Positions 2,669-30,562 of a DNA stretch of 50,837 bases are shown here, piece after piece. Within the stretch, counting starts at the first letter, position 1. Every line of letters begins with the position of its first letter. The DNA comes from Promethearchaeota archaeon (GTDB lineage: Archaea > Asgardarchaeota > Lokiarchaeia > Sigyniarchaeales > SOKP01). Position numbers and translations under genes: made by a program. The DNA lies in NCBI GenBank assembly GCA_048938855.1, contig JBHLLT010000008.1, positions 61,971 through 112,807 of the forward strand, in the 5' to 3' direction. Below the pieces are notes generated by a model that saw only the letters and a program-made list of their open reading frames with translations, ran no database searches and was not told the origin of the DNA.

Positions 2669-4603
2669 ATGTCTCATCCCAAGCTAAACCAACTAACAAG
2701 AGCGGAAGAACTTTTTGATGAAGGTGAGCTTGAGAAGGCTCTTGAAATATTAAACGATCGGAGTCAATTTAAGGGGCTAGATGCTCAACAAAAAATCTAT
2801 TATCAGTACCTTAAGGGCTTAATTCTATTGTATCAACATAAAACCGAAGAAGCTATTAAGTTCGGTGAACAATTATTTAAAGAAGGGCAAAATCTTAATG
2901 ACAATCTCCAATCATTTGATGGATTATTTTTTATTATCAATGGATCATGTTTAGCTAATAAATTCGATGATGCATTCAAAAAAATTGAAGAAGCTGAAGA
3001 ATTATTAAAAATTATTTCTAGTGAACCTAAGAATGAGTTAATTTTAAGAGAGATTCGTTTAAATTTGCTAAAAGCATGGATAAATATGAGTTTTGGTAAT
3101 ATTGATATAGCAGAAAAGTATTTTGAAGAGATCCTAAGTAAAAAAAAAGAACTTGGTAATACTTTTGAAATCGTTTGGGCTTATAGTCTAATGATACAAA
3201 ATATGCTTTGGGTAAAAGGTAGACCTGATCTTGCTATGAAATACAATAAAAAATTATTATTACAAGCAAAGGAAATTAAATTTAACCACTACTGGATTGC
3301 TATTTATCATGGTTATAAGGGGGTAATATATCAAGCTATTGGAGAGCTAGATAAAAGCTTGAAGCATTATTTAACTTGTAAAAGATTAATTAAAGAATTA
3401 CAAAGTGATTTTCTGAATGCTCCTATATTTAATAATATTGGGAATGTTTATTGTGAAAAGGGAGAATATGACCTTGCTTTGAAATATTTGGAAGAAAGTT
3501 TATTATTTCATAAAGCCCAATATAAAGTGCTTCACCCAGGCTATCTTTGTAGTATAATCTCTATAGCTCTTAAAAAAGGTGATATTGATTATGCTCAAAA
3601 ATATTTTCAACGCCTAGAAAATATATATAATCAAACACCGGATAGTTATATCAAATTACTTTACCAATACAATAAAGCTTTAATATTGAAAACCAGCTCT
3701 CGAATACGAGACAAAGCAAAAGCTGAGAAATTATTAAAACAAGTTATCAAAAAAGGAGGTTTTGAATTTCTTCAATTAAGTGATGCTTATATTCATCTTT
3801 GTGACTTACTCCTTGCGGAATATCGTACTTATAATTATGATGAAGTTCTTGAAGAACTTAATCAAAATATTGCTCAATTATTAACTATTGCTGAAAATTC
3901 ACATTCTTATCGTGTTTTTTGTGAAACTTTTGTATTAAAATCCAAATTAGCTTTATTAACTTTTGATATGAAAGCAGCTCGAAGATACTTAACTCAAGCT
4001 CAGAAAATTGCGGAATCTTATGGCCTAAAACGATTAGCAATGAAAATCTCAATTGAACATGATAATTTACTAAAAGAATTAGATAAGTGGGAAAATTTAA
4101 ATGAATCAAAAGCAAGTCTGACGGAGCGTATTAAATTGGCCCGATTAGATGATCAGATGACAGTAATGCTAAAAAAACGGTCATTGAAAGTTCCAGAGAT
4201 ATCAAATGAAGACCCTGTTATGCTATTAATCTTAACCGAGGGTGGGATTCTTTTATTCTCTAAAAAATTTATCGAGGATTTTTCATTTGAAGATGATATC
4301 TTAGGAGGTTTTCTAACTGCGATAAATTATTTTATTAGTGAGGTATTTTCTGAAGGTCTTGATAGAGCGGTTTTCGGTCATTATACACTTCTTATGATGC
4401 CTCTTCAACCATTTTTGATATGCTATATCTTTAAAGGGGCTTCGTATTTTGCTCAACATAAGATAAAAACTTTTGTTACTTCATTAAAGAATGACAATAT
4501 TACTTGGCAATCTTTACAGAAATTTTTCCAAAAGAGTAAATCAGTTCAATTAAACGATATTCCATCGCTTGAATCATTAATTACAGAGATTTTTTTAGAA
4601 TAA
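2669..4603 (+). CDS. TPR-repeat protein with C-terminal longin-like domain
   Basis: TPR motifs (FNNIGNVYCEKGEYDLALKYLEESL). C-terminal domain nearly identical to that of 1..1641. Confidence 0.85.
   Translation: MSHPKLNQLTRAEELFDEGELEKALEILNDRSQFKGLDAQQKIYYQYLKGLILLYQHKTEEAIKFGEQLFKEGQNLNDNLQSFDGLFFIINGSCLANKFDDAFKKIEEAEELLKIISSEPKNELILREIRLNLLKAWINMSFGNIDIAEKYFEEILSKKKELGNTFEIVWAYSLMIQNMLWVKGRPDLAMKYNKKLLLQAKEIKFNHYWIAIYHGYKGVIYQAIGELDKSLKHYLTCKRLIKELQSDFLNAPIFNNIGNVYCEKGEYDLALKYLEESLLFHKAQYKVLHPGYLCSIISIALKKGDIDYAQKYFQRLENIYNQTPDSYIKLLYQYNKALILKTSSRIRDKAKAEKLLKQVIKKGGFEFLQLSDAYIHLCDLLLAEYRTYNYDEVLEELNQNIAQLLTIAENSHSYRVFCETFVLKSKLALLTFDMKAARRYLTQAQKIAESYGLKRLAMKISIEHDNLLKELDKWENLNESKASLTERIKLARLDDQMTVMLKKRSLKVPEISNEDPVMLLILTEGGILLFSKKFIEDFSFEDDILGGFLTAINYFISEVFSEGLDRAVFGHYTLLMMPLQPFLICYIFKGASYFAQHKIKTFVTSLKNDNITWQSLQKFFQKSKSVQLNDIPSLESLITEIFLE
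4188..4575 (+). repeat. High-identity paralogous segment (copy 2)
   Basis: Matches 1217-1604; many differences are at third codon positions. Confidence 0.8.
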
Positions 4604-9890: not shown

Positions 9891-10040
9891 TTTATTTTTT
9901 ACTTTAAATCCGAAAAATTATACTTTTATTATTTTAAAAAACCTTTTCTCATTCTGTTAGATTTTTAGAAAAGTAAAATTTATTTAATTGAAGTGTAGGC
10001 AAAAAAAAAGATAAGTGTAAAAATAATATAGATTTAAAGA

Positions 10041-25898: not shown

Positions 25899-26231
25899 AT
25901 GCCTCATATAGTTATTTTTGCTAAGTGTCCTAGTCATATAGCGGGGAAATTCGTAAATAAAGCAGTTGAAGCTATACAAAAGAATTTATTTCCTGAGGAT
26001 GAATCTCAACAAGAATCCCTTGTTAGATCTGCATGGAAAATTACTGAAGATGGAATAAAATTTCTAAGCATAACGGGTGTAAAAGAAGGAAAGCTTGAGG
26101 AAGCATTAAAAGCGATTTATAAAGAAATGTTATATTATTCAGATATTGAGGGCTTTGAATCGAATGTTGAAGTTTGGGGAACTTGGCAAGAAGGTTTTGA
26201 AGCATTAGGAAGAGAAATTCCTTCAGTTTAA
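25899..26231 (+). CDS. Hypothetical protein
   Basis: 110-aa ORF with GAGGG SD-like site; family not recognised. Confidence 0.7.
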   Translation: MPHIVIFAKCPSHIAGKFVNKAVEAIQKNLFPEDESQQESLVRSAWKITEDGIKFLSITGVKEGKLEEALKAIYKEMLYYSDIEGFESNVEVWGTWQEGFEALGREIPSV

Positions 26232-26539
26232 TTAACATCCTAAATAATAAAAAATCAATTTTTTTTTATTCTTTAATTTTATAACAATAACTAAGAATGA
26301 TCGCTCTTTTCTATAATTCCTAGCTGTTTTTCGAATTATCTTATTCTGTGATAATCAAAAAGATAAATTTTTTCTATCATCAATAATCATAATTCTAAAT
26401 TTCGCTTACATTGATAAATAGTAACAAATAAAAATATTAAAAACGAATAAAACCTAAAAGATAAAATATTAATTGACGTAATAAATTAAAGAATTCTACA
26501 ATCTTGTATAAAAAATTAGAGGTTGATGTGATAAAAGGA

Positions 26540-28483
26540 ATGGAAAAACAAACTCATCGGATTGGTTACTATGCATGTCAGTGAGGTATAAACATCCGAA
26601 GTAAGGTTGATTGTGATGAGCTCGTAGAGTATGCTAAAAATGAATTCCCTGATGAAATTGTTATATCAAAGAAAAATGCTTTTCTATGAACTGATAATGC
26701 TCAAAATGAGATCATAAAAGATATACAAGAGAAAAATCTTAACAGAATTGTCGCATCAGCTTGAACACCGCGCACACACGAAGTGATCTATAGAGGAACA
26801 ATAGCTAAAACTGACTTAAATCCATATTATTTTCAGATGGTAAATGTCCGTGAACATTGTTCTTGGTGTACAGATAATAAAGAAGAAGCAACAGAAAAGG
26901 CAAAAACCTTAGTGAAGAGTGGTATCGAGAGAGCAAAATTATTGGAGCCAGTTCCTATTAAAACTGTCCCTGTCACTAAAGCTACATTAATTGTCGGTGG
27001 TGGTATTGCAGGTATGAATGCTGCACTTGATCTTGCAAATCAAGGTATTAAAGTATACCTTGTGGAGCATAAGACAACTATTGGAGGTAGAATGGCCCAA
27101 CTTGATCGAACTTTTCCAACTGATGATTGTGCTATATGAATCTGTGGACCTAAAATGCTTGAAGTTAATAGAAATGAGAACATAGAATTACTTACTTATA
27201 GCGAAGTAAAAAAAGTAGAAGGTTATGTCGGCAATTACAAGGTTACAATTGAAAAGAAACCAAGATATACAACTGAAGAATGTAATGGCTGTGGAGCTTG
27301 TGCTGAAGTCTGCCCTGTTTTCACATCGAATTATTTCGATGAAAATTTAGGCGCAAGAAAGGCAATCGATATATCATTTGGTCAAGCAGTTCCATTCTTG
27401 TATGATGTCGATAGAAATGCATGTATTGAATGTTATTCGTGTGTAGATGCATGTGAATTAGATGCGATTGATTTTAGCCAAGTTCCAAAAGACGAGAATA
27501 TTGAAGTTGGCACAATAATTATAGCAACAGGTTGGGATATTTATGAACCTTATGGTGAATATGGATACGGAGAATTTGAAAATGTAATAACTCAATCACA
27601 GTTGGAACGTATGTTGGCTCCTAATGGTCCACTTGAAGGGCATGTACACAGAATTTCAGATGATAAAAAGCCAAAAGAAATAGTGTTTATCCAGTGTGTT
27701 GGCAGTAGAGAAACGGAAAGAACTTATTGCAGCGGCGTATGCTGTATGTTGGCTCTGAAAAATGGAAGATTGTTAAAAGAAGAATTTCCAGATGCCAATA
27801 TAACAATATGTTACATAGATATAAGAACAAATGAAAAAGGTTTTGAAGAGTATTTTCAACGTGCTAAAGACTTTGATATTAGATTGATTCGCGGTAAAGT
27901 GGGCGAGATTTCTGAAGATCCCGAAACTAAAGATATAAATCTTCGTGTTTATTCGTCCTTAACAGATGAAATAATAAAGATCGACGCAGATTTAATCGTT
28001 CTTTCCACAGCAGCTCTCCCATCAAAGGGTACTCATGAAATTTCTCAAGTGTTAAATCTTGATACAAATACATATGGATTCCTTACAGAATCGCACTTCG
28101 GTTTAATGCCACAAGAAACTAAAACTAAGGGAATTTTTATTGCTGGATTTGCTCAAGGACCAAAAAATATCTCCTATTCGGTCTCTCAAGCAAGAGCCGC
28201 AGCAAGTAAAGTGGCAGAATTGACATCTCCTGGAGTGGTAGATATAGAATTAATTACAGCTGAAGTTAACAGCGCATTTTGTATATCCTGCAGAAGATGT
28301 GAAAAAGAATGTCCAAAAAATGCAATTAAAATCGATGAAGCGATTGGTGCGTTTATTGATGAAATAAATTGTGATGGATGTGGAATTTGTGCTTCTTGTT
28401 GTCCTACTCAAGCAATTGATATTAGATATTATCGAGATCACCAATTATTTGCTGAAATTGATGGGCTTTTAGGAGGTGGTTAG
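26540..28483 (+). CDS. hdrA: Heterodisulfide reductase subunit A, selenoprotein with 4 Sec (647 aa)
   Basis: One frame from ATG 26540 (or GTG 26528) to TAG 28481-83, with TGA at 26582 (ACQUGINI), 26687 (AFLUTD), 26762 (SAUTPRTHE) and 27137 (DDCAIUICGPKM). It joins the track ORFs at 26783 and 27155. GGGIAG FAD motif, ferredoxin motifs, QCVGSR, YCSGVCC. Confidence 0.95.
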
Positions 28484-28487
28484 AGAA

Positions 28488-28943
28488 ATGGAAAACAACA
28501 TTAGTTTAATAGTATTTGCATGTATGAAGTGAGGATATAGTGCGGCTGATTTAGCAGGGGTTTCAAGATTAAAGTATACATCCTCGGTAAAAATAGTAAA
28601 AGTGAGGTGCACTGGAAGGATTGATCTAAAGCACATCCTATATAGCATCATTTCTGGGGCTGATGGTGTTATGATTGTTGGATGACGACCTAATGAATGC
28701 CAATTCAAGAATGGAAACTTTACAGCTCAACGACACGTCGAATTAGCGAATAGAATATTAGACTCTCGAGGATTTGGAAATCAAAGAGTTAATATGTATT
28801 GGTTAAGTGGAGCAGAATCAGAGAAGTTTGTTAAGAGTGTAGAAGATGCATATGATAAAGTAAAAAGAGCTGGTCCAAACCCCATTAAAGCTATGGATGT
28901 TAAATTACCAGAAAAAGACTTACTAATTACCCCTATTGAATGA
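28488..28943 (+). CDS. mvhD: MvhD/VhuD [2Fe-2S] subunit, selenoprotein with 2 Sec (151 aa); absent from ORF track
   Basis: MENNISLIVFACMKUGYSAADLAGVSR..VRCTGRID..GADGVMIVGURPNECQF..GPNP, with TGA at 28530 and 28683. Ends at TGA 28941-43 (next in-frame TAA 28950-52). Confidence 0.95.
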
Positions 28944-28996
28944 ATCTTATAAAAAAATTTTTGTTATAAGAGGACTAACCTCGCAAAGGGAGGGGT
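28929..28996 (+). promoter_or_regulatory. Eukaryote-like SECIS element candidate
   Basis: AUGAA(28940-44), 8-bp stem UCUUAUAA(28945-52)/UUAUAAGA(28964-71), extendable by 2-3 A-U pairs with apical As, then GGAC(28972-75) giving tandem GA/AG. Lower helix ACCCCU(28929-34)/AGGGGU(28991-96). Confidence 0.75.
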
Positions 28997-29059
28997 TCTT
29001 AAAAAATTATAAAAAAGTATCAGATTTTTGAAATAGTATAAAGAAGAAATGAAAGATAT

Positions 29060-30562
29060 ATGGTTCAAATTGTAAATAACAAATTATTTTCAAATATATC
29101 CCCAAAATCTTTAATGGAAGCTACTTATGAAGCTTCAGGAAACTTCCAAATCAGAGCATTTTTTGAAGCAAAGGATGAAATTCTAAAAGCAAATAAATAT
29201 TCTGAAGTTGAGTTTTATGAGATATTAGATGCTATGATCGATGCTGAAACAGAGCGTAAACTGGTATTAGAGAAGTTAAAAGGTAAAAAACCATTATTTT
29301 TAGAAGAGATGGTAAAAATAGTAAAGGAATTTCCCTCAGACAATGTAATTAGAGATATAATTTACCTAAAGGAACAAGGTTATATTGAGGAACATATTGA
29401 AATTAAAACTAAAAAGGTAATTAAAAAAATCAAGGGAGAAGAAAAAGAAGTCGAAGAAGAAGAACGCTTTTTTAGGTATCAAGTAAAAAAACTCCCTGAT
29501 GATTTTATGGAACACTTTTTTGAACCTGTTTCTCTTGTATTCACCTCTGGTGTATGCTGTCAATGTGGTTGGTGTTCTTCAATTTGCCCTGTAAATGCTA
29601 TTGTTGTAACTGCGGATACTTTAGAGATCGATGATAAAATTTGTATGAAGTGTGGATTATGCTATTCAGTTTGTCCTCGTTCATTCTCAATTGAACAATT
29701 TTTACTGAGTAGGTCAAAGCTTAATAAATCCTTAAATTTCTCGGATAAAATCAATGGATATCTAAGTACTCATTCTGCATCAACCACTAGTGATAAGATT
29801 AAAAAAGTACGACAAGATGGAGGTATTGTTACTTCTTTACTCGAATATTTATTAAAGAATAAATTAGTCGATGCTGTAATAGCAGTTCAACATTCAAAGG
29901 AAATGTGGAAACCGGAACCAGTTATAGTAGAAAATGTAAAGGATTTATATAAAACTGGGGGAACTAAGTATGCAAATGCATCAACTCTAAATATGATAGA
30001 TAAAATGAAGCAGTACGAGAATATTGCAGTTGTTGGTGTTCCTTGTATGATGAATGCTCTAGAAAAAGGCAGGTTATTTCCAAGTGGAAGACCTTTTTTT
30101 AATAATATTAAATATCGAATAGGTCTTTTTTGCATGGAATCCTTTTCTTATGATAATGTACGTAAATTAATTAAAGAACAATTTGATAAAGATTACACAA
30201 AAATAACAAAAATGGATATTAGTGGGGGTAAGTTCATTATATATTTAGATTCGGGTGAGGATTTAAGAGTACCTTTAAAAGATGTGAAATCTTTTGCCCG
30301 CCATAACTGTCATTTTTGTGAAGATTTAACAGCAGATTGTGCTGATATTTCTGTAGGTTCAATCGGTTCACCTGGTGGTTGGTCAACAGTGATAATCCGA
30401 ACTAACTTAGGTGAAAAACTTTTCAAAGATGCAATTAAAAAAGGATTGATTGAATCTAAAAACCTCTCTGAAGTTAAGCCAGGTCAATCATTACTAGAAC
30501 GAATCGCACGATCAAAGAGGAAAGATTGTAAACCAATCAAATTAGATATAAAACAGGATTGA
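29060..30562 (+). CDS. FrhB/FdhB-family protein with N-terminal helical/wHTH-like extension
   Basis: CCQCGWCSSICP, CMKCGLCYSVCP, QDGGIVT, VGVPC, IGLFCME, CHFCED, ADISVGSIGS. Confidence 0.9.
   Translation: MVQIVNNKLFSNISPKSLMEATYEASGNFQIRAFFEAKDEILKANKYSEVEFYEILDAMIDAETERKLVLEKLKGKKPLFLEEMVKIVKEFPSDNVIRDIIYLKEQGYIEEHIEIKTKKVIKKIKGEEKEVEEEERFFRYQVKKLPDDFMEHFFEPVSLVFTSGVCCQCGWCSSICPVNAIVVTADTLEIDDKICMKCGLCYSVCPRSFSIEQFLLSRSKLNKSLNFSDKINGYLSTHSASTTSDKIKKVRQDGGIVTSLLEYLLKNKLVDAVIAVQHSKEMWKPEPVIVENVKDLYKTGGTKYANASTLNMIDKMKQYENIAVVGVPCMMNALEKGRLFPSGRPFFNNIKYRIGLFCMESFSYDNVRKLIKEQFDKDYTKITKMDISGGKFIIYLDSGEDLRVPLKDVKSFARHNCHFCEDLTADCADISVGSIGSPGGWSTVIIRTNLGEKLFKDAIKKGLIESKNLSEVKPGQSLLERIARSKRKDCKPIKLDIKQD

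Follow-up and report, generated by a model that had tools for sequence, protein, structure and literature searches.

A lokiSECIS with the mvhD stop codon in its core, probably serving six UGA codons in hdrA and mvhD

Positions 28929–28996 of the window, by which we mean the whole 50.8-kb stretch of DNA analysed, are a genuine lokiSECIS, and its AUGA core doubles as the stop codon of mvhD. The element probably serves six UGA codons that lie upstream of it in hdrA and mvhD. We consider it very likely that this is a Loki-type, eukaryote-like (type I 'eSECIS-like') lokiSECIS at the 3' end of an mRNA that is probably bicistronic for hdrA and mvhD, that it licenses the six distant UGAs, and that the UGA of its core terminates translation. 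The motif and its covariation, the single element per gene pair, the conserved UGA positions, the stop-codon pattern and the genes of the selenocysteine (Sec) machinery were observed directly. As a phenomenon this is already known; publications of 2016 and 2024 cover the signal, the use of one element by two genes and the overlap of stop codon and core. The additions made here are small: conservation statistics, the observation that within one clade of vhuD orthologs most members keep the stop in the core, and the dismissal of a back-up stop.

Structure and conservation of the element

All parts of the element were located on the plus strand. The 5' strand of helix I (ACCCCU, 28929–28934) overlapped Thr-Pro codons of the mvhD tail and paired with the 3' strand (AGGGGU, 28991–28996). 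The AUGA of the kink-turn-type SECIS core (28940–28943) was invariant in 43/43 aligned elements, and its UGA (28941–28943) was the mvhD stop. It was followed by the 5' strand of helix II (AUCUUAUAA, 28944–28952), which included an in-frame UAA (28950–28952), by an apical loop of 11 nt that begins A-rich and has G as its last nucleotide (AAAAAUUUUUG, 28953–28963), and by the 3' strand of helix II (UUAUAAGAG, 28964–28972). Helix II comprised eight Watson-Crick pairs and an A.G closing position. The GA of the core (28973–28974) forms the tandem G.A quartet together with the UGA. A mini-hairpin (28979–28989; CCU at 28979–28981, loop CGCAA, AGG at 28987–28989) stood after the core, ahead of the 3' strand of helix I, and made the lokiSECIS fold three-armed. 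The original prediction had described an AUGA, a stem, an A/U-rich apex, a GA and a lower ACCCCU/AGGGGU helix, and each of these was found where it had been placed.

The eukaryote-like lokiSECIS was described by Mariotti et al. (2016, Mol Biol Evol, PMC4989117), whose rules specify AUGA, a 9-bp stem, an 11-nt loop (AAAAA...G) and GA, with AUGA_GA or AUGA_AA as the core. Every published feature was present here, namely the AUGA, a stem of nine positions, the 11-nt loop with its A-rich start and terminal G, a GA after the stem, and the position behind vhuD. The nucleotide before the terminal G of the loop was U, where A is usual. Single-sequence minimum free energy folding recovered the helices with an energy that was not significant (z −0.99); support for the element therefore comes from the motif and its covariation, not from stability.

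The 3.95-Mb genome (a Promethearchaeota MAG of approximately 30% G+C) was searched with a strict lokiSECIS pattern (AUGA; a stem of 9 nt in which 8 or more positions pair; a loop of 11 nt that opens A-rich and closes with G; and GA or AA after the stem). It gave 9 matches, compared with 0–2 per simulated genome (genome-size first-order Markov sequences). Each of the 9 was located just behind an open reading frame (ORF) that contained an in-frame UGA. Three of these ORFs were mvhD and one was hdrA; the others were a peroxiredoxin-like gene, a gene in which two UGAs are adjacent, and three small genes for membrane proteins. Comparison with covariance models, proposed as a check in the original prediction, had a divided outcome. 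A model of the genome's own Loki elements (R2), built from eight other SECIS elements of the genome with the 28929–28996 element and its orthologs excluded, matched 28918–29002 at 71.5 bits (E 2.3e-15, filters off), the sole significant match in the AT-rich window. The Rfam eukaryotic SECIS models, in contrast, did not match; cmscan reported no SECIS family in the whole window at the gathering score, and none in 26200–29300 at E <= 10; the only matches were noise, to snoRNA and Lnt models.

The closest relatives of the mvhD gene were all from Promethearchaeota (Loki-type Asgard archaea). A scan for orthologs with one genome per species yielded 42 usable loci in Promethearchaeota, with MvhD 66–86% identical, and the element was found at the same place in 42/42. 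The conservation and covariation on which the original prediction was staked were thus both seen. After the stem, the core read GA in 39/43 and AA in 4/43 aligned elements, and A38–A40 and G46 of the loop (numbering of the first aligned sequence) were invariant. In a plain MAFFT alignment of the orthologs, 91.7% of cells were paired, compared with 45–58% when the partners were slid. Compensatory changes on both sides were found in 6/9 pairs of helix II and 4/6 pairs of helix I, and the observed covariation score was reached by no shuffle. Third positions of the Thr-Pro codons, on the 5' strand of helix I, covaried with the strand in the 3' untranslated region (UTR). The mini-hairpin was paired in 89.9% of cells among orthologs.

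Eight paralogous elements had the same architecture. Changes on both sides were found for 5/6 pairs of helix I, 8/8 predicted pairs of helix II and 2/3 pairs of the mini-hairpin; overall, 15/18 pairs changed on both sides in an alignment that was fitted to the model and so leans towards the structure. The mini-hairpin was present in 8/8 paralogs, with 95.7% of cells paired.

In most orthologs (L009–L052), the 3' strand of helix I was immediately followed by UUUU(U), with UUCUU at the present locus, a possible oligo-T terminator of the archaeal kind. Further downstream, an AT-rich, TATA-like stretch (UUAUAAAAAA, 29009–29018) preceded a frhB-like gene starting at 29060. The UUCUU and the TATA-like stretch before the next gene suggest that the SECIS may mark the 3' end of the mRNA. 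It is extremely unlikely that the hairpin serves chiefly to end the transcript, as a 3'-end or terminator structure, and resembles a SECIS only by coincidence. The run of 4–5 U after helix I does resemble the archaeal termination signal, but the same three-armed fold, with its invariant AUGA, A-rich loop and terminal G, stood behind at least 10 other UGA-containing ORFs of the genome and the window held no other match; a terminator role would, moreover, be compatible with SECIS function.

Several of the other elements in this genome (G000) had features of their own. On contig C70 (approximately 123300–125000, minus strand; L004–L006), three tandem lokiSECIS of 52–59 bits were located behind small membrane-protein ORFs with an in-frame UGA, a family outside the seven Asgard selenoprotein families of Huang 2024 (PMC11227280). 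On contig C49 (approximately 285150–285360, plus strand; L002), an ORF of approximately 159 codons with two adjacent in-frame UGAs (..HADUUADV..) ended 11 nt before a lokiSECIS-like element with an AUGA_AA core (30 bits with a covariance model of the orthologous elements, R1); this ORF may be an unlisted selenoprotein. A peroxiredoxin-like selenoprotein gene on contig C34 (approximately 438200–438300, minus strand; L001) also stopped at the core UGA of its own SECIS; its stem had no UAA three codons later, and by eye no stop was visible in the stretch that followed. Contig C47 (26686–26776, plus strand) carried a SECIS of 44.7 bits that was longer and had an additional apical stem; this type II-like shape resembles the published Loki SPS element.

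Two selenoprotein genes and a single element

Translated with UGA as Sec, hdrA (26540–28483, plus strand) was a selenoprotein gene of 647 codons with Pfam Fer4, Pyr_redox_2 and FAD-binding domains and a UAG stop (28481–83). It contained four in-frame UGAs, at 26582–84, 26687–89, 26762–64 and 27137–39 (codons 15, 50, 75 and 200). The selenoprotein gene mvhD/vhuD (28488–28943, plus strand) encoded an FlpD family protein (Pfam PF02662, E 5e-41) with in-frame UGAs at 28530–32 and 28683–85, and it ended in the SECIS core (..ITPIE-UGA). Only 4 nt separated the hdrA stop from the mvhD ATG at 28488, and the core UGA lay in the mvhD frame, both as originally predicted. The distance from the UGA to the AUGA was 1.8–2.36 kb for the four hdrA codons (2358 nt for the first) and 255 and 408 nt for the two mvhD codons. 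Among 37 hdrA orthologs, UGA was conserved at codon 15 in 34, codon 50 in 26, codon 75 in 34 and codon 200 in 37. The genome encoded tRNA-Sec, SepSecS (464 bits) and a SelB-like factor. Sec insertion at these codons is presumably directed by the 28929–28996 element.

A Shine-Dalgarno-like GGAGGUG (28472–28478, plus strand) was read within the 3' end of hdrA, 9 nt ahead of the mvhD ATG. Its location inside hdrA suggests that translation of the two genes may be coupled. Co-transcription of hdrA and mvhD appears probable from two features only, the 4-nt gap and this site. On such an mRNA, the SECIS would act at a distance across the boundary between the two cistrons.

Whether hdrA has a SECIS of its own bears directly on this sharing. 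R1 recovered 8/8 of the paralogous SECIS, at 30–61 bits; since it found all eight of these diverse paralogs, we regard it as sensitive. With R1 and R2 and filters off, no second SECIS was found in the window, and R1 placed nothing other than the 28929–28996 element above 18 bits. Likewise, each of the 42 orthologous loci had one strong match and no second SECIS (up to 3 kb upstream, contig permitting). Three non-self matches scored best. One, at 18 bits, was the reverse strand of the same hairpin; another, at 9934–9974 of the window (minus strand, 17 bits, E 0.05 by R1), was not found by R2; and the third, at 2945–3013 (19.6 bits), was inside a 644-codon ORF without a UGA. Weak recurrent matches approximately 1.8 kb downstream in L030, L034 and L038 (17–21 bits) lacked AUGA, lay within the next coding region and were rejected.

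We see very little chance that hdrA is recoded through an unrecognised signal of its own, such as an element within the coding region or a SECIS that is divergent or lacks the kink-turn, with the mvhD element serving mvhD only. The best match of the two models over 26200–28900 with filters off reached only 10.5 bits (E ~4), no second match recurred in the orthologous loci, and published de novo searches with RNAz and Glam2 did not find a second element either (Mariotti et al. 2016, PMC4989117). A single shared element is therefore the preferred reading. A separate SECIS within or upstream of hdrA, named in the original prediction as the finding that would speak against sharing, did not emerge, and the predicted service of six UGAs up to approximately 2.4 kb upstream by one element, with no other convincing SECIS nearby, is supported by the occurrence of one element per gene pair.

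The stop codon in the core

In 34/42 orthologs, the mvhD stop was the core UGA; these loci are related by descent, so they do not represent 34 independent events. One of the remaining orthologs had a UGA three nucleotides upstream, and the others had UAG or UAA 4 to approximately 30 nt upstream. In the genes examined, UGA served as stop at two places only, +1 and −3 as counted from the AUGA; UAA or UAG was used wherever the stop lay farther upstream, and the shortest distance between a presumed Sec codon and the AUGA was approximately 118 nt. The hdrA stop in 37 orthologs was UAA in 29, UAG in 8 and UGA in none. MvhD orthologs that stop at a UAG at −4 from the AUGA were only two codons shorter, which argues that the core UGA really terminates. 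The MvhD tail past the FlpD domain (28884–28940, residues ~133–155) was variable, and it was much shorter in the two orthologs with an earlier UAA (L035 and L037). The mvhD coding sequence seems simply to continue until it meets the SECIS.

In the mechanism that we propose, the folded SECIS would bring the elongation factor for Sec, together with Sec-tRNA(Sec), to ribosomes that have paused at one of the six distant UGAs. A ribosome with the core UGA in its A site would already have unwound helix I and would cover the 5' strand of helix II. With no SECIS remaining at that moment, the release factor would win and mvhD would end with ..ITPIE. A UGA inside the element would thus not be recodable, since it comes within reach only once the ribosome has unfolded the element. 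The original prediction had suggested that melting of the SECIS could turn the last UGA into a stop. This fits the 34 stops in the core, the orthologs with UAG at −4 and the absence of UGA stops from hdrA, and mvhD probably terminates at 28941–43.

The next in-frame stop was the UAA at 28950–52, three codons past the core UGA, where a back-up stop had been predicted. Its presence was confirmed; its role as a selected fail-safe was rejected. An in-frame stop three codons past the core UGA was found in 32/34 orthologs stopping in the core, but UAA also occupied stem positions 7–9 in 8/8 orthologs where it is out of frame, and it is therefore a feature of the stem and not evidence of a fail-safe. 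The two exceptions (L014 and L024), which also stop in the core, had an altered UAA with a compensating change, and their next stops were 22 and 31 codons on.

These observations also bear on a leaky core UGA, at which some ribosomes would insert Sec and go on as far as the UAA, so that an MvhD-UIL isoform would be made depending on selenium. We regard this as unlikely. The in-frame stop shared by the 32 orthologs would accommodate it, but the stem explains that UAA, L014 and L024 reach their next stop only after 22 and 31 codons, the ribosome reaching the codon must unfold the element, and the published minimal-distance argument applies (PMC4989117). It also appears distinctly improbable that the stop in the core is a conserved regulatory device and not a by-product of compaction. 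Every ribosome that terminates on mvhD would then unfold the only SECIS of the operon, and mvhD translation flux, or Se-dependent read-through to a UIL tail, would modulate how Sec is inserted at the four UGAs of hdrA. Our preferred reading remains that translation terminates at the core UGA and that the UAA is part of the stem.

Comparison with known SECIS systems

Among known systems, the element matched the lokiSECIS of HdrA-VhuD (PMC4989117; PMC11227280) in its motif, its place at the end of vhuD, its occurrence as a single copy per gene pair, the six UGAs and the overlap with the stop codon; nothing of substance differed. Mariotti et al. (2016, PMC4989117) reported HdrA with up to four Sec and VhuD with two, HdrA-VhuD tandems with very short gaps, and one common element for up to six UGAs over ~2 kb. 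In their set, the HdrA stop was always UAA or UAG, and VhuD stops included UGA. The published example of an AUGA doubling as stop codon is VhuU.1, which the authors accounted for by a minimal-distance rule (PMC4989117); here, the gene is VhuD, and the overlap was kept in 34/42 orthologs. AUGA/stop overlaps were subsequently found to be frequent by Huang, Xiao & Zhang (2024, ISME J, PMC11227280), who named the element the Asgard type I eSECIS-like structure. In the parts of the two lokiSECIS texts consulted (PMC4989117, PMC11227280), the mini-hairpin and the location of helix I within the last codons were not described. The published picture is unaltered by the conservation of the stop in the core, the covariation of helix I with the last codons, the UAA as a stem feature or HdrA never ending with UGA.

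The SECIS of Euryarchaeota (Methanococcales/Methanopyrus), especially that of VhuD, resembles the element in its 3'-UTR location, its action at a distance, the hdrA-vhuD synteny and the AUGA_[G/A]A of VhuD/HdrA elements. The SECIS of M. maripaludis is functional at distances of 88–679 nt and may lie immediately next to the coding region (PMC9622424). The element described here was nevertheless not of the euryarchaeal type, as it had a single G-C pair in the upper stem, no GAA_A bulge by eye, and a kink-turn-type layout.

Eukaryotic type I SECIS (Rfam RF00031 and others) resembles the element in layout only: the AUGA/GA quartet, the AA of the apical loop, helix I and the internal loop. This agrees with the originally predicted eukaryote-like character and with the description by Mariotti et al. 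(2016, PMC4989117). Eukaryotic SECIS is also located 3' of the coding region and serves distant UGAs, and a UGA that is too close terminates. It differs in that the element here had a shorter upper stem of nine positions, an extra 3' mini-hairpin, an overlap with coding sequence and a probably polycistronic mRNA. No Rfam SECIS model matched it, as SECISearch3 likewise did not match lokiSECIS, and SBP2 was not found in Loki (Mariotti et al. 2016, PMC4989117). SECIS elements of Lokiarchaeia have been proposed as an evolutionary link between archaeal and eukaryotic Sec decoding. The common hdrA-vhuD element holds the record for a single SECIS serving many distant UGAs beyond a cistron boundary, and the locus described here is a clean further example.
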